DNA from: Candidatus Nanohalobium sp.
Lineage (GTDB): Archaea; Nanohalarchaeota; Nanosalinia; Nanosalinales; Nanosalinaceae
Reading direction: 5' to 3'
Assembly (NCBI GenBank): GCA_042217545.1
Contig: JBDGSM010000028.1
Span: 1 to 10,733, forward strand
DNA length: 10,733 nucleotides
Shown one piece after another: positions 1 through 10,598 of this stretch. A program made the position numbers and the translations under genes. Within the stretch, counting starts at the first letter, position 1. Each line of letters opens with the position of its first letter. The notes beneath the pieces are model-generated. The model did no database searches. It saw nothing but the letters and a program-made list of their open reading frames with translations, and was not told where the DNA came from.

Positions 1-111
1 GGTATGTGGTTTGAAGGCCTGACTCCCGACCACGAGGTATACGCTTTTTCGGAGGGAGAGATTGATGAAGGTGTGCGTGAAATAGTTGAAAGTTATGCTG
101 AAGGCCTCTAG
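1..111 (+). CDS. 3' end of an acidic hypothetical protein (partial, runs off the window)
   Basis: Frame 1 is open from base 1: GMWFEGLTPDHEVYAFSEGEIDEGVREIVESYAEGL*. Composition is halophile-like, and its TAG overlaps the stop of the convergent ORF at CTAG 108-111. Confidence 0.65.
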   Translation, partial: GMWFEGLTPDHEVYAFSEGEIDEGVREIVESYAEGL

Positions 112-818
112 TTTTCAAATTCTTCTGCTTTCCTGATCTGTGCTGAGGCGTTCAGCAGAAGGAAGTCTAGGTTTTCTGCCTTTTCCAGCAGTTCACAGGA
201 TATTTCGGAGGTTTTTTCCTTCATGTCTTCTAGATTTCCGATCTTTTTCTTTGTCGCCTCGCTTTTCCCTTTAGTGTCCAGCTCTATGGTTTCAAGGTAT
301 CTTGAAGCAGACAAAAAGTGGTGTACGTGTTTTTCTCTGAGTTTGTGGAAGAGGTCGTTCTCTATCTCTTTTTCTATGCTGTTTAAGGCCTTTTCGTCAG
401 GGTATTTTCTGAAGCCGGTTTTCCACAGGTCTTTGACTTCGTATTCTTCACCATTCAGGAGTTTAACGGCGTTTTCCAGGCAGTTGATGGCTGTGCCGTA
501 GGCCTCGGTGAGGTGTGTGTTATCTTTTCTGCTGTGTTCTGCGTATTTTTCTTCCAGTTCTTCTACCTTTTCCTGAAGTTCCGATGTATCGGGGCTTTCC
601 ATGCTGTTTTTTGCTGTTTCCAGCTTTCTCTTTTTCCGGGTGTAGAAGTTGAGGGCGTTTAACTGCTCCTTTGTGTCTCCCGGGAAGTCGGCCTTAGCTA
701 GGGATAATTCGATGTCGTCTTCTGGTTCTCCTATCTCCTCTTCTATAGTTTCTCTACTTTTGTCTATCTGTTCCTGGCAAACTTCAATAAGATCTAATAT
801 TTTTTCTTCCGTTGTCAT
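108..818 (-). CDS. Family A helical/coiled-coil hypothetical protein (copy A7)
   Basis: 236 aa. Shares EEEIGE.E...AKADFPG.T and C-terminal ELL.KA..L..L with the other A copies. SD-like GAGGTGAG lies upstream of the ATG. Confidence 0.9.
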   Translation of the reverse strand: MTTEEKILDLIEVCQEQIDKSRETIEEEIGEPEDDIELSLAKADFPGDTKEQLNALNFYTRKKRKLETAKNSMESPDTSELQEKVEELEEKYAEHSRKDNTHLTEAYGTAINCLENAVKLLNGEEYEVKDLWKTGFRKYPDEKALNSIEKEIENDLFHKLREKHVHHFLSASRYLETIELDTKGKSEATKKKIGNLEDMKEKTSEISCELLEKAENLDFLLLNASAQIRKAEEFEN

Positions 819-857
819 GTTTTTCTCACCTCGTCTTTTATCCTGGTTTTGAGCAGT

Positions 858-1505
858 TTATCCAGTAATTTCTTTTCCTTCCTCATATCGGTTTTGGAAT
901 TCGTCTACTGCTCTTCCGAGGCCTTCCCATCTCAGAGTGTTTTCTCCTTCCAGTTCTTTTACGTCCTGGATGTAGGAGCTTACCTCTTCTAGGCCTTCTG
1001 TAAACTCGTATGCTCCTTCCAGCGAGAAGTAATCGTCTCCGGTCGTTCTCGGTAACTGAGGTTTCTCTTCTCCGGTGAACTTTTCTGGATCCTTGTCCGG
1101 GTTCCATATCTTTGGGTCGGAGTGGAAGAGGTAGTCTTCACCTGTTGAGTCTCTGTATCCTGTTATGTGTACCCCTAGAAGGCCTGAATCCAGGTCTGAG
1201 TTAGATATTTCGTCTCTTCCTATCTCTTTTTCTCCGGTGTCGAGTGTTTCTGTGATGTCTATGTTGTAGAAGAATCCGTCTTCATCTATATCTTCATCTC
1301 TTGATAGGAAGTTGTCTGCCTCATCTGCGTTAGGAGGGTTGGTGGTATTTATATCGACTTCATAGTTTAGTTGAGCTTCCTGACCGAACTCTTCTTCTGT
1401 ATCTACTTCACTTAATGTTTCTGTGTCTATCCCTCTCGTCAACGTCCTCAGGTTGTAGTTTTCCCACCTTGCAGGGAATACCGGGTCTTTGTAGTGGAAG
1501 CTCAC
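858..1505 (-). CDS. Family B acidic hypothetical protein (copy B4, intact)
   Basis: Motifs GFFY, GLLGVHITGYRD, DYLFHSDPKIW, RWEGL. I moved the start from TTG 1511 to GTG 1505: it gives MSF as in B1 and lies 28 nt after the TTTA box. Confidence 0.88.
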   Translation of the reverse strand: MSFHYKDPVFPARWENYNLRTLTRGIDTETLSEVDTEEEFGQEAQLNYEVDINTTNPPNADEADNFLSRDEDIDEDGFFYNIDITETLDTGEKEIGRDEISNSDLDSGLLGVHITGYRDSTGEDYLFHSDPKIWNPDKDPEKFTGEEKPQLPRTTGDDYFSLEGAYEFTEGLEEVSSYIQDVKELEGENTLRWEGLGRAVDEFQNRYEEGKEITG

Positions 1506-1514
1506 ATCCAAAAC

Positions 1515-1597
1515 TTACTCATCCAGACATAAATAGGTTGTCGTTACGAGAAGATAACAAAGAAAAAGTGATATGTGTTAGGCCTTTCTTCAGGCCT
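1515..1597 (-). promoter_or_regulatory. Duplicated promoter cassette of family B genes (copy 2): AGGCCT hairpin, T-rich tract, palindrome, TATA
   Basis: Near-identical to 6003-6082. TTTATG at 1533-1528, imperfect palindrome TCGTTA-N8-TAACAA at 1541-1560, hairpin TAGGCCT-ttcttc-AGGCCTA. Confidence 0.8.
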
Positions 1598-1668
1598 ATT
1601 TTTTCTTCGATTTTTCTCTCGATTTCCTCTTTTCTCTTTCTTACTTCTTCAAGCGTTTCCAGTTTCAT
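1519..1668 (-). pseudogene. Truncated family A 5' fragment (A6), broken at an AGGCCT site
   Basis: ATG overlaps the A5 stop (ATGA). Reads MKLETLEEVRKRKEEIERKIEEKIG, then runs into the promoter cassette and stops at 1519 (49 aa). Not in the ORF track. Confidence 0.8.
1599..1653. repeat. 55-bp direct repeat with 3422-3476
   Basis: 54/55 identical by hand alignment; encodes LEEVRKRKEEIERKIEEK in both A6 and A3. Confidence 0.9.
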
Positions 1669-2360
1669 AGTTTTTTCTTTTTTCCTCTTGTCTCTTTGAG
1701 TTGGACTGCTGCATTTGTTAATAAGTAGTCGAGGTCTTCTGCTCTTTTCCTTAATTCTTCTCTTAATCTTTTTTTATGATTTATCAGAGATTCTAAGCCT
1801 TTATTTTTGAGTTCTGTTTTCTGATTTGAATCTCCGAGAGTTTTTGAGGTCCTCAGGAGTAAATGCACGTTTTCTTCTCTGAATTCTTTTAGAAAGTCGT
1901 TTTTGAGGCCTAGTTGGTCTTCGATTTTCAGGTATGGGTCTGGGAATGTGATTGCTGCTGATCTTCCGAGGCGTTCTGCTCTGTATTCTTTTCCTTTTAG
2001 TAGTTTTTGTGCTTCTTCTAGGCTCTGGACTGTGGAGCTGTATCCGTACATTATCTGTTCTTTGCCTTTATTGTCTGTTTGCTGTCTTTCTTCCTTAATT
2101 TCCTTGATTTTTTCTTCTATTTTTGATGTCTCTATTTCTTGTAGAGCTTCTTTAACTGGCTCAAGAGATTTTTCTTCGGAATTAAGTGTCTTCAGGACCA
2201 TCATGTCCTTATCGGTGTTTCCCGGGTATCCTTGTTTGGTGGCCTCTCTTAGAATGTTTTCTTCTTTTGCTCCTAGTTCTTCCTGTATTTCTTCTTTGAT
2301 TTCTTCTTTCTTTTCTTCAATTACTTCCTCAAGGTCTTGAAGTTCTTCGAATAATTTCAT
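1665..2360 (-). CDS. Family A hypothetical protein (copy A5)
   Basis: 231 aa; EELGAKEE...KQGYPGNT and C-terminal EELRKRAEDLDYLL. Confidence 0.9.
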   Translation of the reverse strand: MKLFEELQDLEEVIEEKKEEIKEEIQEELGAKEENILREATKQGYPGNTDKDMMVLKTLNSEEKSLEPVKEALQEIETSKIEEKIKEIKEERQQTDNKGKEQIMYGYSSTVQSLEEAQKLLKGKEYRAERLGRSAAITFPDPYLKIEDQLGLKNDFLKEFREENVHLLLRTSKTLGDSNQKTELKNKGLESLINHKKRLREELRKRAEDLDYLLTNAAVQLKETRGKKKKL

Positions 2361-2382
2361 GGATTTTCAGTCCTCCAGTTCT
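2321..2382. repeat. 62-bp direct repeat with 3464-3525 spanning the A-A gene junction
   Basis: 56/62 identical; both copies read ...ELED* aaatcc (A/G)TG KLFEEL..LEEV. Confidence 0.9.
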
Positions 2383-3050
2383 CTGAGTTTTTTCGAGGTC
2401 TTATGCAGCATTGCGTTGATATCTTCTGCTCTCTGTTTTAGTTCGTCTCTTATTTCTTCTATTTCTCTATCTATTTTTTTCTTCTCCTCAAAGTCCTTCT
2501 CTCTGATTTTGGAGGTCTGTTCAAGATTTCCTTTTTTGTTCAGCAGTGATGATGAGTTCAGAAAGGCCTGAACGTATCTTCCTCGGATTTCTTTGAGTTC
2601 TTTCTTTTCCTCGTCGGCTATGATTTTGCCGGTTTCCGGGAATCTGTCTTTTGATTCCAGGTCTCCGAGTTTAGGGTCGTAGTCCTTTCCCTTCACAAGT
2701 TTAGCGGCGTTTTTCAGTAGTAGGCTAGCTCTGTTGGATTTTTTGGCGTCTTCGTCCCAGTTACCGGAGCTTCTTGGGTGCTCTTCGTCTAGCTTTGCCT
2801 TTCTGTCTTCGATCATCTCTGCATTGAGGTCCTGAAGTGTTTGCTGAACCGATTTAAGGATTTCAAGTCTTTCCTTATAGAATTCAAGTAACCTAGCGTG
2901 TCTCTGACCTTCTTCGGAGTTCTCCGGCTTGAGCGCCTCCATCTCTGGGTGTTCGAACTCTCCTATCTCTTCCTCAAGGTCCTTTCTGTTAGCTTCTACC
3001 TTCTCCTCGGTTTCCGATATAATTTTCTCGAGTTTTTCCCTGTATTTCAT
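2367..3050 (-). CDS. Family A hypothetical protein (copy A4)
   Basis: 227 aa; LEEEIGEFEHP and C-terminal DELKQRAEDINAML. Its ATG overlaps the stop of the B3 remnant. Confidence 0.9.
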   Translation of the reverse strand: MKYREKLEKIISETEEKVEANRKDLEEEIGEFEHPEMEALKPENSEEGQRHARLLEFYKERLEILKSVQQTLQDLNAEMIEDRKAKLDEEHPRSSGNWDEDAKKSNRASLLLKNAAKLVKGKDYDPKLGDLESKDRFPETGKIIADEEKKELKEIRGRYVQAFLNSSSLLNKKGNLEQTSKIREKDFEEKKKIDREIEEIRDELKQRAEDINAMLHKTSKKLRELED

Positions 3051-3244
3051 GTTTCCAGGTCTATAGGTCTGTCGTTTTCATAGCTTTTTCTGAAGGATTT
3101 TACCGCTCTCCCGAGACCTTCCCATCTCAGGCCTTCCGTCCCTCCTTCTCTGTCCGCTATATCTGTTAGATAGCTTTCTACCTGTTTAAGGCCTTCGGTG
3201 AACTCGTAGTTGTTTTCTACCGTGAACTCGTCTTCTCCCTCTGT
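3047..3244 (-). pseudogene. Start-less 3' remnant of a family B gene (B3)
   Basis: Translates TEGEDEFTVENNYEFTEGLKQVESYLTDIADREGGTEGLRWEGLGRAVKSFRKSYENDRPIDLET*, homologous to the B C-termini. Not in the ORF track. Confidence 0.85.
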
Positions 3245-3503
3245 ATTTTTCCAGAAGTTTTTCGTGTTCTTCTGTGTTTATTGATTCAGTTATTTTCTGG
3301 GCTTCTTCTATGTATCTTTCAGCACTTTGAAGCTTACTGTGGAGGCCTGCTTCCTCCTTGAGTTCCTCTGATAGCCCTGCGGAAGCTATCCTTCGAGTTA
3401 TAGGGCCTTCTTCTTTCCCTGTTTTTTCTTCGATTTTTCTCTCAATTTCCTCTTTTCTCTTTCTTACTTCTTCAAGGCCTTCAAGTTCTTCAAATAATTT
3501 CAC
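3186..3503 (-). pseudogene. 3'-truncated family A gene (A3) fused out of frame to the B3 remnant
   Basis: A-like up to ...EKLLEKYR (~3240). The tail GRRRVHGRKQLRVHRRP is B3 DNA read in the wrong frame. Confidence 0.8.
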
Positions 3504-3509
3504 GGATTT

Positions 3510-4154
3510 TCAGTCCTCAAGTTCTTCTATATTTTTCTGGGCGGCTCTTAGATAGTGTTCTGCATCTTGAGCTTTTTCCAGCAATTCTTTCCTTTCTTTT
3601 TCGATGGTTTCCGCAAGTTCATCGAGTTTTTCCTGGCTTTCTTCTGTTATGGCGTGTTTGTTTTCTGTTTTCAGAGTTTGTGATGCTGCAGAAAGCTTAT
3701 TTGCTGCCAGCAAAAGGTTTGAAACGGTTTTTTCGCGTTCAAGGCCTTCGAGTTCTCCTTCGAGGTCTGGTTCTGGGAACAGTCTCTTTTCCCGGTTTCC
3801 TTCTAGAGATTTTATCAGGAGGTTCAGGCTACGGTATATTTTGTCGCTTCTTTTGATCTCTTCGTCATTATAGCTGTCTGGGTCGCTGTATTTTCTTTTT
3901 TCCTCATGTTTATCTCTTAGTTTCCTGTAATACTGGATATCTACCTGATCGAGGTGTTTATCTGCTTTTTCCAGCGATGAGGTTACCGGACGGAGTTTGG
4001 ATAGAAGCGCTGATTCTTCCATGAATTCCTCGGTTCTTCCTTCTTTCGCCATCTTTGCGTCTACAGAGGCCTCTGGTTCTCCGAGTTCTTCCTTTACTTT
4101 TTTCTCTACATCTTCTTTCAGTTCTTCTGCCTGCTCCAGACTTTTAATCTCCAT
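3510..4154 (-). CDS. Family A hypothetical protein (copy A2)
   Basis: 214 aa; EELGEPEA and ERKELLEKAQDAEHYL. Overlaps the B2 end by 11 nt. Confidence 0.9.
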   Translation of the reverse strand: MEIKSLEQAEELKEDVEKKVKEELGEPEASVDAKMAKEGRTEEFMEESALLSKLRPVTSSLEKADKHLDQVDIQYYRKLRDKHEEKRKYSDPDSYNDEEIKRSDKIYRSLNLLIKSLEGNREKRLFPEPDLEGELEGLEREKTVSNLLLAANKLSAASQTLKTENKHAITEESQEKLDELAETIEKERKELLEKAQDAEHYLRAAQKNIEELED

Positions 4155-4740
4155 AACCTAATTCTTCTCTGGAAATTTTTACGTTTTCTCCTTTTTTGAT
4201 CGAGTCGTGGAATCCTGCTACTGCGTCTCTAAGGCCTCTCCATCTGTGACCTAGTCTTTCATCTCTATCTGCTATGTCTGTAAGGTAGTTTTCAATCTCG
4301 TTTAGGCCTTCGTCCAGGCTGTAGTTACCTTCAATTGAGAATGGCTCGTCGGTATACTGTAGTCCTGTTTCAACGTCGGGTAGTCCTTCGTCTGTTTCTT
4401 CGTAGTTCATTTCTCCTTCCTCTGTCCACATCTTGGGGTCAGAGTGGACAAGATAGTCGTCTCCATTTTCGTCTCTGTATCCTGTAAAGTGTACTGCTAG
4501 AAGGCCTTCGTCCACTTCTTTTCTGGCAGTTTTTCCTTCGTCGTTCACCATTTCTCTTATCTCTACGTTGTAGAGGAAGCCGTCTTCTGATTCCTCGAGT
4601 TCTGGACCTTCGCCTTCAAGTATGTTGTCTCCGTTTCCGTTCATTTTCGTCTCTATTTCGTAGTTTAGAAAGTCGAATTCTTCACCGAATTCATCCTCTA
4701 GACTGACATCTGCGTAGACCTCATCTGATTTCCTGTCTTG
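4144..4740 (-). pseudogene. 5'-truncated family B gene (B2); may still be expressed from internal ATG 4644
   Basis: B homology (SDEVYADVSLEDEFGEEFDFLNYEIET) continues upstream of ATG 4644 to ~4728. An in-frame TAG sits at 4741-4743. The first ~25 codons and the promoter are missing, but the core HFTGYRD/HSDPKMW is intact. Confidence 0.75.
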
Positions 4741-5338
4741 CTATGGTCAGGTAGGCCTCTATATCCTGTGCTTTTCTGAGCAGCTCTTCTCTTTCCTTAT
4801 CTATCTCTTCTGCGAGCTTCTCAAGTTTTGCATCTCCTTCTTCGTCGATATGCGGCATGTCTTTCTTTCTGAGTCTTCTTGAGGCCTCGTACATCTTTCT
4901 GGCTGCGTGAAGAAGTTTTGTGATTTCTTCATTGTCTTCGCTCTCTATTTCACTTTCTCTCAGTGTTAGAGGATGTTCTTTCGGTTCAGAGTTCAGCAGT
5001 TTCAGTGCGTTCTCAAGGGCTTTGTAGGCCTTATCGGCTTTTTCGTGTTCCTCTTCGTTTTCGTGGTAGGTTTCCTGGGATTTTTCGTCCATCTGGTCTC
5101 TGAGTTCCCTGATTTCGTCTGTATCTATCTTTTCCAGGATCTTCTCTGCTTTTTCCAGAGATCCCTCTGCCGTGGAGATTTTTGTGTGCATCTGCTCCAG
5201 CTTCCTTGTTTCTCCAGGAAAGTCGGCTTTCGCTGCCTCGAACTGTACTGGCTCTTCGAGTTCACCCACCTCTTCTTCTACACGTTTTTTTATCTCTTCT
5301 TTCAGTTCTCTGAGATGTTTCAGTGTTTCAAGCTCCAT
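4721..5338 (-). CDS. Family A hypothetical protein (copy A1)
   Basis: 205 aa; EEEVGELEEP..AKADFPGET and EREELLRKAQDIEAYL. Overlaps B1 by 11 nt. Confidence 0.9.
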   Translation of the reverse strand: MELETLKHLRELKEEIKKRVEEEVGELEEPVQFEAAKADFPGETRKLEQMHTKISTAEGSLEKAEKILEKIDTDEIRELRDQMDEKSQETYHENEEEHEKADKAYKALENALKLLNSEPKEHPLTLRESEIESEDNEEITKLLHAARKMYEASRRLRKKDMPHIDEEGDAKLEKLAEEIDKEREELLRKAQDIEAYLTIARQEIR

Positions 5339-5993
5339 ATCTCTGTTTTCCTCCGTTGATATTTACAGGTTTTCCTGTAGAGATGCCTTCTCTGAATGTG
5401 GAAAGTGCTTCTCTGAGGCCTCCCCATCGCGTACTCAGCGGTTCTTCTTCCTCTTCTGATATCTGCTTGAGGTATTCTTCTGCCTGTTTCAGGCCTTCAT
5501 CCATTCTGTAGTTCCTCTCGTCTGAGAACCATTCTTCTGTTTCTTTGAGGCCTGCTTCTATATCGGCGAACCCGTCTTTTTCCTCGTATTTTCTCTTTCC
5601 GTCTGATGTCCATTTCTTTGGGTCTGAGTGGACTATGTAGTCGTCTCCTTCTTCGTCTCGGTAGGCTGTGAAGTGTACCGTTAGCAATCCGTCGTCTACA
5701 AGGTGTCTTCCTTCTTTTCCTGAGCCTTTTTCGACCTGCTCCATGATTCTGAGGTCGTAGAAAAATCCGTCTTCACTCATTTCTAGGTCAGGTCCTTCTC
5801 CTTCCAGTAGCTTCTCATTCGTGTTGTTCTTCTTTGGAGTTACCTCTAGATCATAGTTCATCCAGTTATGTTCATCGCCAAATGTGTCTTGTATGTCTAT
5901 CTCTCTGTTGACTTCTGTGGAGAAGCCTAGACTGGTCGCTCCGCGGGCGTTCTGATACCAGCTGTCAGGATCCAGATGACTTGTAAAACTCAC
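5328..5993 (-). CDS. Family B acidic hypothetical protein (copy B1, intact)
   Basis: 221 aa; GFFY, GLLTVHFTAYRD, DYIVHSDPKKW, RWGGL. GTG start lies 28 nt after the TTTA box. Confidence 0.9.
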   Translation of the reverse strand: MSFTSHLDPDSWYQNARGATSLGFSTEVNREIDIQDTFGDEHNWMNYDLEVTPKKNNTNEKLLEGEGPDLEMSEDGFFYDLRIMEQVEKGSGKEGRHLVDDGLLTVHFTAYRDEEGDDYIVHSDPKKWTSDGKRKYEEKDGFADIEAGLKETEEWFSDERNYRMDEGLKQAEEYLKQISEEEEEPLSTRWGGLREALSTFREGISTGKPVNINGGKQRYGA

Positions 5994-6002
5994 ATAGGAA
6001 GG

Positions 6003-6082
6003 TTACTCATCCAGACATAAATAACTTGTTGTTACGAGAAGATAACAAAGAAAAGATGATGTGTGTGGGCCTTGAAAGGCCT
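6003..6082 (-). promoter_or_regulatory. Probable radA terminator plus family B promoter cassette (copy 1)
   Basis: After the radA stop come a GGCCTT/AAGGCC hairpin and a T-rich tract, then palindrome TTGTTA-N8-TAACAA (6029-6048) and TTTATG (6021-6016). Repeat of 1515-1597. Confidence 0.8.
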
Positions 6083-6089
6083 TGATTTT

Positions 6090-7040
6090 TTATCCGTCGA
6101 TTATTCCTGCGTCCTTGACTTTGAAGACTGCTTCTCCTTCAGGCATGTACGGTGAGTCGACGAGTCTTGCGATTCTCTTGTCTTTCTTGCTTTTTCTGAG
6201 GTAGACTCTGACTGCGGAGTTGTGTGCGACGATGTGGCCTCCGATCGCGCTTGTAGGGTCTCCGAACATCTGGTCTGGGTTGGACATGACCTGGTTGGTG
6301 ACCAGTACCGCAAGATTATGAGAGTTTGCAAGCCTCAGCAGAGTGTTCATGTGTTTGTTGAGCTTCTGTTGCCGCTTGGCTAGCTCTCCTCTTCCGACGT
6401 AGTCACTTCTGAACTGTGCTGTGAGCGAGTCGACTACGACGAGGCCTATGTCGTTGTTCTGGCAGATCTGCTGTGCTTCGTCCGCGAGAAGCATCTGGTG
6501 GTCCGAGTTGAACGCTCTTGCGACATGGATCCCTTCCAGTACTTCTTCTGGGTCCTGTCCGTTGGCTTCGGCCATGTCCTCGATTCTTTCGGGGATGAAA
6601 GTGTCCTCTGTGTCGAGATAGATCGCCTCGCGTCCGAGGCCTCCTTCCTCCTCAGATAGCTGAACGTTTGTCGCCAGCTGGTGGGAGATCTGTGTCTTTG
6701 CGCTTCCGTATTCTCCGTAGACTTCCGTTATGCACTGCGTTTCGACTCCGCCGCCGAGGATCTCGTCAAAGTTCTCACTGTTGGTGTGGATCCGTTTCAT
6801 GTCCTGTCTCTGATCGTAACGGTCCTTTGCGGATTCAAAGCCGATGTCCAGGTGCTTGCGAGCTTCTGTGATGATGCTCTGCGCCTTCTTGTCTCCAAGA
6901 TCGGCGACTTCTCCAAGTTCTCCAGAGCTCATGGTCGCTATGGACATCAGTTCCTCGTACCCTGCATCTCTAAGCTTCTCTGCAGTTTTTCCTCCTACTC
7001 CTTTGATATCCTCGAGATCAACGTCGTTGTTTTCTGCCAT
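6090..7040 (-). CDS. radA: DNA repair and recombination protein RadA
   Basis: N-terminal HhH (LEDIKGVG), FxxA polymerisation motif (GFESA), Walker A GEYGSAKT, Walker B VVVDSL, GRGELAKRQQKL, TNQV, GGHIVAH, RIARLVDSP. SD GGTGAT upstream. Confidence 0.98.
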   Translation of the reverse strand: MAENNDVDLEDIKGVGGKTAEKLRDAGYEELMSIATMSSGELGEVADLGDKKAQSIITEARKHLDIGFESAKDRYDQRQDMKRIHTNSENFDEILGGGVETQCITEVYGEYGSAKTQISHQLATNVQLSEEEGGLGREAIYLDTEDTFIPERIEDMAEANGQDPEEVLEGIHVARAFNSDHQMLLADEAQQICQNNDIGLVVVDSLTAQFRSDYVGRGELAKRQQKLNKHMNTLLRLANSHNLAVLVTNQVMSNPDQMFGDPTSAIGGHIVAHNSAVRVYLRKSKKDKRIARLVDSPYMPEGEAVFKVKDAGIIDG

Positions 7041-7088
7041 TCAAAGATCACCTTCCTGGTTTTCTGTTAAACAGTTCATAGTACTTTT

Positions 7089-8081
7089 TTAGGCCTCCAT
7101 GATGTCAAGGAGCTGTTCAAGTTCTTTTTCCGTGTCGAGGACTTCGTACTGGTTCGCGATAATTTCGATCCTTCCGAAGTAGTCGTTGTAACGTGTTCTT
7201 CCTTCGATCTCGACTTCCTTGCCTGTTGCTTTCTCAGCTCCTTCCTCCACTGCGTCGATATCGCCTTCAGTCTCCTCTTCCTCATCGATCTCCAGGAGTT
7301 CGCGGGCCTGGTCCCGGAAGAAAACTGTCCTGATCGAATCGGTTCCATCGTCCACGACTGCGGAGATCGCCAGGGCCTTGTTCGGCTCGACCTCTCCGTG
7401 CTCGTCACATACGAAATCGCCGTCATCGTTCTCTCGTACCGATGTTCCGCATTCCGGGCATGTGCTGTAGAAGGGATTTGAAGTATACACGTTCATTATC
7501 ATTCCTTTGATTCTGTAAGTGGCACCTTCATCGCTTACGCTGCTGATCGAGGCCTCCTGTGCCTCGTTCGGGTTCTTTACTTCTCCGATGTCGTCCTCGT
7601 CCGCCATCTTGACCTGGACTTCGTCTCCAAGCCTCAGCTCCGCGTTTCCCTGATTATCTTCTACTGTGTAGGCGCCTGAGATCTCGATGACATCATCTTC
7701 GTCGATCTTCTCTGCGATCTCTGTCTGTTCGTCCCAGAGCGTTACTCTGATAGTACCTGTTTCGTCGCCGAGGACAATGTTCTGTACCTTTCCGTCCTCT
7801 TCATCGTCGTCACGCTCGAAAGTGTTTACGTCGCTGATATCGACCACTCTGGCTTTCAAACGCACTTTCCTCATCTCCGGGACAATGTTCTCTACTTTGA
7901 GCTCTTGGTCGCCGCCTTCTGCGACTGCAACACCGTTCTCTTTGGCGACAAGATGTACGGCTCCTTCTTCGCTGACAAGGCCTTCGAACTCTTCCATTTT
8001 CTCCTCTATCTCTTCCTTTACTTCGTCTTCTTCGAGCTCTGTCTCGTCCACTATCTTGGCGATTATGTCCTCGACTTCCAT
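7089..8081 (-). CDS. rpa: Replication protein A (OB-fold ssDNA-binding protein with Zn finger)
   Basis: OB-fold motifs GDETGTIRVTLWD and DDGTDSIRTVFF, Zn ligands CPEC...CDEH, helical N-domain (GLVSEEGAVHLVA); directly upstream of radA. Confidence 0.92.
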   Translation of the reverse strand: MEVEDIIAKIVDETELEEDEVKEEIEEKMEEFEGLVSEEGAVHLVAKENGVAVAEGGDQELKVENIVPEMRKVRLKARVVDISDVNTFERDDDEEDGKVQNIVLGDETGTIRVTLWDEQTEIAEKIDEDDVIEISGAYTVEDNQGNAELRLGDEVQVKMADEDDIGEVKNPNEAQEASISSVSDEGATYRIKGMIMNVYTSNPFYSTCPECGTSVRENDDGDFVCDEHGEVEPNKALAISAVVDDGTDSIRTVFFRDQARELLEIDEEEETEGDIDAVEEGAEKATGKEVEIEGRTRYNDYFGRIEIIANQYEVLDTEKELEQLLDIMEA

Positions 8082-8178
8082 ACCAGAAAACTCGGATGGA
8101 AAGCTTAAATCCCTGATGTCTACCGGAAGTGACGGAAATAAGGCCCTTAGAAAAAGAAGATATGGGGGCGGGAAAAAA

Positions 8179-8376
8179 TTATTTCAGGGCTTCCCTGACG
8201 TCTTCCCCGCGGACCGTCTTCCTGCCTTTTTCTTCGGCAATTGCTATCGCTTCTTCCGCTACGTCTCCCGCGAAAGTTTCCAGGATGTCGCCGAGTTCCT
8301 CAGCTCCTTCCTCGGATACTCTCTTGTCTCCCTGAGTCTTGATCATGTCCTTCATCTTCGCTACGGAAAATTCCAT
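8179..8376 (-). CDS. Archaeal histone (single HMf-like fold)
   Basis: 65 aa with RVS and GRKTVxxED histone-fold motifs. SD AGGTGA and TTTAAA box at ~8413-8418. Confidence 0.93.
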   Translation of the reverse strand: MEFSVAKMKDMIKTQGDKRVSEEGAEELGDILETFAGDVAEEAIAIAEEKGRKTVRGEDVREALK

Positions 8377-8503
8377 TTTCTGTCACCTGTTAAACCAAGA
8401 CTTCCTGCAATAATTTAAACAGGACGGTTACCACGACATAATTCGGTTCAGGAGTTGGAGCGCCGTCCCTGAAAGTTATTAACCTGAAACCACAAGTATA
8501 ACT

Positions 8504-8803
8504 GTGGGGAAAAACGGGGGCAAGCAAGAGTCTCTGAAAGAGTTCTTTGTAAACGTCAAATCGGCGAAGATACTGGTATCTCTCAGCAATCCCACAACGG
8601 ATAACTACGCATCCCGGATCTCAAGCGATGTCGACTGCACTTATTCTCACACTGTCCGCATAATACAGAAGTTTGAGGACAGAGGCCTGATCAGTTCAAG
8701 GAAAGAAGGCAGGAAAAAGATGATAGAACTCACATCGGAGGGCATGGAGATAGCTGAGGATCTCGGCGACCTGATGCGCAGCCTTGAAGCCGCTGAAAGA
8801 TAG
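8504..8803 (+). CDS. Winged helix-turn-helix DNA-binding protein (MarR/ArsR-like fold)
   Basis: HTH YASRISSDVDCTYSHTVRIIQKFEDRGLI and wing KEGRKKMIELTSEG. GAAAG-TTATTAA promoter with the box 28 nt before the GTG. Divergent from the histone gene. Confidence 0.88.
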   Translation: MGKNGGKQESLKEFFVNVKSAKILVSLSNPTTDNYASRISSDVDCTYSHTVRIIQKFEDRGLISSRKEGRKKMIELTSEGMEIAEDLGDLMRSLEAAER

Positions 8804-8814
8804 AGGCCTTCGAG

Positions 8815-9204
8815 CTATTCCGGGTTGGATACCGTGACTTCGTATCCTTCAGGTGGCTCGGCTCCTCCTTCAAGTCCGTATCTCTCGATCTGTGTTACCA
8901 GGTCTTCAGCTACTTCTTCAGGTTCAAACTCTTCACCGTACATGCTGCTGGATACAGCCGTTCCGCTCATGAACTCCTCAAAGTCGTCGTTCTCCATCGC
9001 TTCGTAAGCATCTGAAAAGGTCACTTCGGAGACCTCGACATCCAACCTCGCCTTCTTAGAAGGGTTGTGCTTCCCTATATCGAAGATGTAACCTCTTCTA
9101 TTGTCCTCATCTACATCAGGTAAGTGACCTGGTTCACCGTAAAGAATCCTTTCGGGAGAATCCACGTCCCCCTCGATACCCTGGAGTTCAAAACTATCGC
9201 TCAT
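8815..9204 (-). CDS. Acidic hypothetical protein
   Basis: 129 aa, strongly D/E-rich; TTAAATA box ~31 nt upstream of the ATG. Confidence 0.8.
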   Translation of the reverse strand: MSDSFELQGIEGDVDSPERILYGEPGHLPDVDEDNRRGYIFDIGKHNPSKKARLDVEVSEVTFSDAYEAMENDDFEEFMSGTAVSSSMYGEEFEPEEVAEDLVTQIERYGLEGGAEPPEGYEVTVSNPE

Positions 9205-9318
9205 ATGTAACTAATAGGTAGCAAAAAATATTTAATGTTGTTTTCTGATGAGGCCTGGAAGCCTCACGGTTTCGCAGGGAGATATGTATCGATTACCCTG
9301 TGGCTCATCGAAGCAATG

Positions 9319-9599
9319 AGGTCGATCAAAAAGGAAGAAAGATCTTCAGGCCTTAAACCCAGATAATTTCCGCATTAGAGAGCTGTTGCTGCGCGGAGTA
9401 GATGATCTGTCTCTGCACCTGCCTGAGAAAGCAAGATTTCTTACAATCACATCCCGGCAATGATGGTTGCTGCCCTGCTCCGCAACCACTCTCCTGAAAC
9501 TTCTGGTGGTAACCAGGCTATGCTCTTGCGAGGGCAGAAATTCACAGTACCTGGGCAGAAGGCCTCCTCTAGTCGGGGCTAAAAGCTGATCAGAGACCT
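9319..9599 (+). ncRNA. Candidate structured non-coding RNA of unknown class
   Basis: No ORF of 60 aa or more. Nested helices found by eye: 9319-28/9587-99, 9348-54/9559-65, 9358-62/9551-55, 9365-70/9537-42, 9378-82/9489-93, 9393-9401/9475-83, plus local hairpins. G-U pairs favour the + strand. Confidence 0.45.
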
Positions 9600-9601
9600 G
9601 A

Positions 9602-10598
9602 TATTCTCACAATCCGAACAGAAAAGAGTGTTAATTATAGTCGAACATACAATGTTTTTAGAAAGGCTTTGGTGTTTCTCACAGGTAAAAACCTCTTGTT
9701 ATCCTGTAGTTTTTGGCGCTGGATTTTTACGGTAGAAGGCCTATACCTGTATTATGAAGATCACAAAGATCCAGGACGACGGTGAGCGGTTCATCATACA
9801 CGGCGATGGAAGGCTCCTGGAGGAGCTGAGAGATGTATTCGACAATATGGCTCTGGGAGTCTCCGTCACAGAGTCGGACAGAGGGGTCGCTAACATCCTC
9901 TATACGGAGAACAACAGGGATCTGGTGCTGAGGGTGCTTAACGATCACACTGAGAAATGAGACCCAATGAGTGTTGAAGGTAAATGAACAATCTGTAGGC
10001 CTTCTCCTGGTGTTCTGGTAATTCGCCGCACAACAGAGTTTCACAGGGTTAGAAGACTTTCCCGGTTACCTTGATAGGATATAGATAGGTAGAGAACAGC
10101 TAATAGCAGAGAGATCAAGGCCTGATACTTGCCCATTTGTTGTTTTCTCCGCTGTAGGCCTCCTGGTACTTCTCTGAGGATCCATTAGCTCGGCTATACT
10201 ATGGCGAGTTTCGCTGCTCCGGTCCTTTGGAGGCGGCATTTTGCCCTCTTCGCTCATGAAAGATTGTTTGGTTTTCAGCATTGTAATTTTAATGATGTTC
10301 GCTGATCTTCAACACTCAATTACCATGAGTGTTCAAAACTGGCGAACATCGAGGCTTATAGCGAAAGGCCTCAACATAAAGGAGGTATAGTAGAAATATG
10401 GCCGAGGCCGTTTCCTGGTATGTTCTTGGTGCATTAGGTTGGGGTCGCGCCCCAGATTCCTCACTAAATAAAGAAGGTATATCTTCGGCGTGTGAAAGGC
10501 CTGGTGTGATTTACCTGGTGTCAGTTATACCTTCTTTGTTAAGAAGGTTTTTCGATATTTAGGCCTGAAATCCTGTGAGTGTGTAAACTGTTTGAACA
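9602..10598. promoter_or_regulatory. Six dispersed copies of the palindrome TGTTC-N9-GAACA
   Basis: Copies at 9602-9620, 9629-9647, 9972-9990, 10296-10314, 10330-10348 and 10580-10598. Spacer length is fixed while its sequence varies. Confidence 0.7.
9754..9960 (+). CDS. Small hypothetical protein (68 aa)
   Basis: Acidic, globular-looking sequence, GC3-rich codons, TTTA box 28 nt before the ATG. Confidence 0.7.
   Translation: MKITKIQDDGERFIIHGDGRLLEELRDVFDNMALGVSVTESDRGVANILYTENNRDLVLRVLNDHTEK

Follow-up and report, generated by a model that had tools for sequence, protein, structure and literature searches.

The stretch analysed here, termed the window, comprises 10,733 nucleotides of Candidatus Nanohalobium sp. 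(contig JBDGSM010000028.1) and corresponds to C21:1-10733 of G000, a 1.03-Mb genome in 82 contigs that is 92% complete. It encodes RadA, RPA, an archaeal histone and a tandem array of acidic proteins, and copies of the palindrome AGGCCT lie dispersed over it (Table 1). A preliminary description of the window had counted 44 copies, an excess of roughly 15-20-fold over the 2-3 expected. All 44 were verified at their coordinates (15..10566; 4.1 per kb), and dinucleotide shuffles of the window yielded 2.27 on average and 7 at most. By the listed open reading frames (ORFs), 27 sites are coding and 17 non-coding; the coding ones are read as xGL (17), as [EKQ]Ax (9) or, in a weak ORF, as RP (1), and the EGL, EAS and KAL contexts named earlier are all present. 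The best relatives of the window RadA among named records are nanohaloarchaeal, and an Rfam scan of the window gave no match.

Table 1. Features of the window (positions of the 10,733-nucleotide stretch)
Feature	Position	Strand	Remark
44 dispersed AGGCCT palindromes	15..10566		sample of the genome-wide 3,699
AGGCCT right behind TAG stop of ORF 108-818(-)	102..107		stop-adjacent sites enriched genome-wide
Close AGGCCT pair, 12 bp apart, in spacer	1580..1597		such pairs depleted genome-wide
AGGCCT with near-ideal symmetric flanks (ttca-AGGCCT-tcaa)	3471..3484		flank analysis
AGGCCT in EGL context, preferred left flank ttca	3738..3751		flank analysis
RadA	6090..7040	-	sites at 6442 (IGL), 6637 (GGL)
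RPA	7089..8081	-	sites at 7091 (EA-stop), 7550 (EAS), 7978 (EGL)
Archaeal histone	8179..8376	-	no trait-tracking residue across relatives, by eye
AGGCCT right behind TAG stop of winged-helix ORF 8504-8803(+)	8804..8809		listed ORFs
Ten AGGCCT sites, mostly non-coding DNA	9251..10566		listed ORFs
Array family A, ~205-236 aa	108-818, 1665-2360, 2367-3050, 3510-4154, 4721-5338	-	no Pfam match
Array family B, ~166-221 aa	858-1511, 4144-4644, 5328-5993	-	no Pfam match

The enrichment is not confined to the window, as G000 holds 3,699 AGGCCT in total (1 per 279 bp) and all 82 contigs carry it, at 1.33-5.85 per kb each. Genome-wide observed/expected ratios (O/E) under Markov models of orders 0-4 were 15.1, 13.0, 5.1, 2.4 and 1.11; the last is low because most AGGCC pentamers, 7,398 of 9,205, belong to copies of the motif, and even at order 4 AGGCCT is the top hexamer (z 33). 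Of the null models that had been proposed as a check, codon-preserving shuffling leaves the excess standing, and under the order-4 model the ratio collapses while the motif keeps its first rank. Synonymous within-gene shuffles, which covered 1,022 of the 1,154 genes called in G000 (a purpose-built codon model, no curated annotation), left 558 copies against 2,969 observed (5.3x; maximum 591 in 20 shuffles), with an enrichment of 4.5-5.7x in every reading frame and AGGCCT as the top hexamer. Its density is 3.47 per kb in coding and 3.95 per kb in non-coding DNA, and O/E in spacers is 20x in G000 and 38x in the motif-rich relative G003 (2.6-4.9 per kb in 20-kb bins), against 0.5x in the motif-poor relative G021. 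A palindrome of the type of highly iterated palindrome 1 (HIP1) exceeds expectation more than tenfold, in any frame and also in non-coding DNA; AGGCCT does so 15-fold genome-wide and 20-fold in spacers. It is a genuine, strong, frame-independent and lineage-patchy iterated palindrome in Archaea.

Among the 50 genomes of the family that we counted, 12 are AGGCCT-rich, here termed positive, with 1,481-4,489 copies each, at about 2-4.8 per kb; 37 hold 55-892, and G042, with 762, is intermediate, so that the counts are bimodal. Another 16 genomes of the order hold 32-500 each, and none of 58 loci ranking below the nanohaloarchaeal matches exceeded 0.7 per kb. A quick tree built on RpoA1 from 48 genomes, without G004 and G062, places every positive inside one 26-genome clade (Shimodaira-Hasegawa-like approximate likelihood ratio test, SH-aLRT, 100), alongside 13 negatives. 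Genus g2 combines two positives with four negatives, and sister species differ in the trait (G003/G023 vs G056-G059; G043 vs G042). The survey of relatives that had been called for shows a trait patchy even within a genus, and several gains or losses are needed to account for it. No other strongly iterated palindrome was evident in 3-23 kb samples of the negatives. G017 and G018 are very low in AGGCCT (73 and 55 copies), and the chromosome of the negative G021 avoids GGCC (O/E 0.41) and ACGT (0.32) and encodes a 5-methylcytosine (m5C) methylase; the family ranges from AGGCCT avoidance to hyperabundance.

In G021, 18 of the 97 sites lie in four accessory-gene clusters (C1: 532.7 kb, 672-673 kb, 909 kb, 962-964 kb), which are possibly imports from motif-rich relatives. 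G051 is mildly raised (892 copies vs 547 for the control) and its NucS is unusually similar to that of the positive G001, a likeness that can be read as gene transfer or as bin mixing. G000 itself has motif-poor stretches and two genes of low occupancy (C3:8000-14000, C77, C57, C46:654-2351 and C47:4738-5913), all candidates for recent acquisition. A virus scan gave 105 hits, 80 with long flanks, and none combined an acidic proteome with genome-like enrichment, a weak negative because host-matched viruses were not targeted.

AGGCCT fills most of the places where a synonymous change would allow it: 69% of such opportunities in G000 (2,969 of 4,291) and 74% in G003 (3,412 of 4,635), compared with 3.5% in G021 (79 of 2,237). 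Together with the synonymous shuffles and the spacers, this occupancy upholds the earlier view of a HIP1-like palindrome that codon bias does not explain. Occupancy is even across conservation classes (67-73%), lineage-specific genes included, and genes without homologues in relatives stand at 0.667 vs 0.68-0.73 in the other classes. The imprint extends to the proteins. Across 429 triads of orthologs, G000 has 1,651 permissive peptides and G003 1,718, vs 1,024 in G021 (O/E 1.44, 1.55 and 0.96), which is about 1.6x more than in this motif-free relative, an imperfect neutral control because it avoids GGCC itself. The excess suggests that AGGCCT has driven amino-acid change.

Individual sites turn over beneath this saturation. 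Shared opportunities are occupied in both genomes in 238 of 355 cases for G000-G001 (226 expected) and in 455 of 767 for G000-G003 (441 expected), so that positions are barely conserved while density is. For the same two pairs, a Markov turnover model predicts a residual within-class correlation r of 0.78 and 0.70 if sites are protected, 0.47 and 0.36 under selection or biased conversion, and 0.18 and 0.12 under accelerated creation ('gain-boost'). For G000-G001 we observed 0.34 (confidence interval, CI, 0.17-0.52), an interval that takes in the selection prediction. The observed values, 0.34 and for G000-G003 0.12, stand beside neutral ones of 0.21-0.27 and 0.12-0.16, and come from a class-conditioned test, which is not the same as the one in PMC5861425. 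Sites shielded from mutation, as in the protected-site model, are rejected by this turnover. At 6-45 bp from shared sites, synonymous identity (0.41-0.44) does not exceed that of distant DNA (0.43), which speaks against a site-directed repair patch.

The motif has a strict GGCC core and a soft outer pair. AGGCCT stands far above GGGCCT/AGGCCC, which in turn exceed the other single outer changes; single-base deviations concentrate at the two end positions, a GGCC altered in both outer bases falls short of baseline, and no preference is seen for inner changes. Even where no full motif can form, a Pro codon that follows GGG has T as its last base in 77% of cases in G000 (110 of 143) and in 90% in G003 (187 of 207). 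Transitions and transversions toward AGGCCT are both drained, and in G003 AGACCT shows depletion, at 0.7 against 1.7-2.4 in the negatives. Sampled loci show a more relaxed motif in genus g18 and a stricter one in genus g21. Beyond the hexamer, a flank bias symmetric under reverse complement reaches 4-5 bases on each side (~14-16 bp in total), with T (G000) or C (G003) at +1, not C at +2, and A at +3/+4. It is likewise present in spacers and persists under codon-context control, where the factor for A at +3/+4 mostly lies at 1.25-2x, with z reaching 14 and a single G003 cell at 1.06, and over all opportunities, occupied or not, it amounts to 1.3-1.5x vs 1.06-1.11 in G021. This preference would explain the genome-wide excess of sites just behind stop codons. 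Neighbouring sites avoid each other: pair O/E is 0.34, 0.59, 0.66, 0.74 and 0.73 at 6-10, 10-14, 14-18, 18-23 and 23-28 bp and 0.85-1.0 beyond, whereas other 4-GC hexamer repeats less than 30 bp apart, direct or inverted, show no depletion (0.89-1.10).

The two-fold symmetry, the graded hierarchy of variants and an exclusion on a steric scale together match the trace expected of a homodimeric protein that binds double-stranded DNA (dsDNA). Of the three roles that the preliminary description had offered, protein binding is the best fit (symmetric flanks, graded variants, ~28-bp exclusion), while a role in recombination or deletion was not shown. We therefore read AGGCCT, tentatively and with confidence a little short of even, as the binding site of a putative dimeric dsDNA-binding protein under probable weak selection, which would favour additional and stronger sites, a reading built on sequence patterns. 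A homodimer with two-fold symmetry would contact ~14-16 bp and, once bound, occlude ~28 bp, so that a second site that near would add little. Each site would carry a log-odds advantage of ~3-4, sufficient for synonymous and conservative amino-acid substitutions to become fixed. What would matter is density and not location, as with a protein that organises the nucleoid or a chromosomal 'self' tag, and AGGCCT would come and go among lineages as the reader is gained, lost or retuned.

Several results weigh against this binding-site reading. For G000-G003, r is 0.12 (CI 0.01-0.24), below the 0.36 of selection and equal to the 0.12 of accelerated creation, and by the model this pair favours accelerated creation, or else separate origins of the trait in the two lineages. 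The 10-bp A/T phasing around sites (z about -8) does not exceed that seen at other GC-core hexamers, G021 included, and being generic lends no specific support to a chromatin role. None of the eleven candidate readers tested, one G003-only nuclease included, tracks the trait; about 20 more lay outside the profiling. DnaG is found in motif-poor loci too, NucS, which 46 of 50 genomes have, shows no diagnostic column in 35 sequences, and histones show no trait-linked residue by eye. Three histone paralogues are present per genome (G000, on C21 and C56; G003; G021).

The candidates came from a pool of 106 genes common to G000 and G003 and missing or diverged in G021, 86 of which were scanned, and from 228 of 284 G003-only proteins; genes shared with G021 were outside the scan. 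PolB2, Mre11, a 348-aa unknown protein, a VirB4/HerA-like ATPase, SWIM, RHH, winged helix and HD dNTPase proteins all fail a five-genome profile (positives G019 and G022; negatives G052, G020 and G057). A PD-(D/E)XK nuclease is present in 5 of 50 genomes and does not track the trait. An AbrB-like protein occurs in 32 of 50, many negatives included, and is lacking from the closed positive G054; in genus g2 it was seen only in the two positives. The G000 assembly lacks NucS and may therefore lack the reader gene too; alternatively, the reader may have arisen by retuning of a core gene, which would be invisible to a presence filter. The PolB2-like polymerase of G000 lies with two upstream genes at C37:1863-5787, patchy in the family. 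In the window, the tandem array (108-5993, reverse strand) alternates two acidic protein families without Pfam matches, with an apparent remnant around 3050-3500; two copies of an 81-nt element (1498-1578 and 5986-6066; 85% identity) lie upstream of two family-B genes.

The main rival is a neutral molecular drive. Here a nuclease or repair factor that reads the site would resolve heteroduplexes, arising from replication errors or from conversion between copies, toward the AGGCCT strand, so that functionless sites would form rapidly and decay at the normal rate. The 'gain-boost' values of 0.18 and 0.12 lie within both turnover intervals, and uniform occupancy across gene classes, the draining of transitions and transversions alike and the depletion of AGACCT in G003 speak for such a drive. 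We rank it close behind the binding-site reading, at clearly less than an even chance. Against it, flank bias is seen even at unoccupied opportunities, and neighbour exclusion requires lasting occupancy or a repair patch, yet synonymous identity near sites is not raised. As its agent, NucS is near-universal and without a trait-linked residue, and Mre11, PolB2 and the PD-(D/E)XK nuclease fail to track the trait.

An Elhai-type ratchet, in which a methyltransferase or other modifier (e.g. phosphorothioation) marks GGCC and modification-directed repair adds the outer A/T, with the enzyme unrecognised or recently lost, we judge improbable. The anatomy is HIP1-like, with deviations at the first and last base and a core not enriched outside full AGGCCT, and the positive G022 has an m5C methylase whose target is not known. 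However, the GGCC/AGGCCT methyltransferase predicted in the preliminary description was searched for in four families and not found, and methylation as the signal is unsupported, as no cognate enzyme tracks the trait. PF00145 occurs in one of seven positives searched (G022), PF01555 as a strong match in one of seven, PF02384 in two of 12 (the G003 copy adjoins HsdS, hence type I) and PF02086 in none of 12, while G001, a positive in a single contig and 98% complete, has none of the four. The PF01555 match of G000 was discarded, its ORF looking like a Trm11-type tRNA methylase, and a regular-expression motif scan of G000 revealed no DNA-methylase architecture. The rejected protected-site model (r 0.70-0.78) also tells against a ratchet, and no Dnd gene was among 314 G003 proteins scanned, a family-level search not having been made.

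Still less probable, in our view, is a DNA-uptake or exchange sequence acting through biased uptake and recombination, as with the DNA uptake sequence (DUS) of Neisseria, the uptake signal sequence (USS) of Haemophilus or the proposed role of HIP1. According to excerpts of PMC2817400, DUS and USS of Neisseria and Pasteurellaceae about doubled the matching tripeptides in the proteome; AGGCCT likewise accumulates genome-wide and reshapes the proteome to a similar extent (~1.6x permissive peptides). HIP1 has been linked to transformation, as excerpts of PMC13756078 and 10.1101/2024.09.10.611283 have it, and the few G021 sites include the four accessory-gene clusters. Unlike DUS and USS as excerpted, AGGCCT is palindromic and shorter, ComEC is absent from five of five positives searched, DprA occurs in one of 50 genomes, a negative, and saturation in genes without homologues reaches the level of core genes. 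An 8,305-aa giant protein is followed in G000 by the VirB4/HerA-like ATPase gene (C9:32587-59378), and this ATPase is present in the negative G052 and nearly absent from the positive G022. A codon, amino-acid or hairpin artefact, for which the order-4 ratio of just 1.11 and a generic 10-bp S/W periodicity of these genomes could be cited, is already refuted by the 5.3x excess over synonymous shuffles in all frames, the 20-38x in spacers, the bimodality among relatives and the lack of avoidance of generic inverted repeats.

The closest comparison is with HIP1 (GCGATCGC) and the alternate cyanobacterial HIPs, which in the excerpts of PMC4390886 and PMC5861425 are, like AGGCCT, short palindromes, hyperabundant in every frame as well as in non-coding DNA, and sporadic among relatives. 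HIP1 also deviates at its first and last base, shows no enrichment of its core apart from complete copies, and has a cited density of roughly 1 per kb (PMC4390886). Compared with HIP1 as described there, AGGCCT is an archaeal hexamer, denser (about 1 per 220-510 bp), without a cognate methyltransferase in the four families searched, with a ~28-bp exclusion and a symmetric flank code, and barely conserved in position beyond saturation (238 vs 226 and 455 vs 441 expected). AGGCCT behaves like HIP1 or like an uptake sequence, yet it has neither the methylase expected of the former nor the competence genes expected of the latter among those searched for. Chi-like and nucleoid-protein motifs are also dense and short, and count by their density, not by where they lie; Chi sites lack the palindromic form and are recognised by RecBCD/AddAB, and no such reader was identified for AGGCCT. 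A term search for 'GGCC' in the text of PMC11001535, PMC10266531, 10.1101/2025.02.15.638363 and PMC7962313 gave no hit; excerpts of the first two describe methylation of another motif, which is rare, in a single nanohaloarchaeon. Among the literature matches listed, which exclude supplements and subscription papers, there was no paper on AGGCCT or on an archaeal iterated palindrome.

To our knowledge HIP1, which is tied to methylases, has been without a settled explanation for three decades. AGGCCT presents a denser, archaeal case in which no cognate methylase from the four families and no competence gene (ComEC, DprA) was found in the positives searched. It is conceivable, though doubtful, that some nanohaloarchaea practise a sequence-specific chromosome tagging that does not depend on methylation, in which a dimer reads a ~14-bp palindrome every ~280 bp, rewrites the proteome and is toggled between sister species; its purpose would be nucleoid organisation or telling own DNA from host DNA. 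Because positive and negative sister species exist in 1-Mb genomes of ~1,150 genes, the reader is findable and selection against drive is testable. AGGCCT could serve as a marker for binning and gene transfer, and since it biases amino-acid evolution it bears on the disputed phylogeny of the nanohaloarchaeal lineage.

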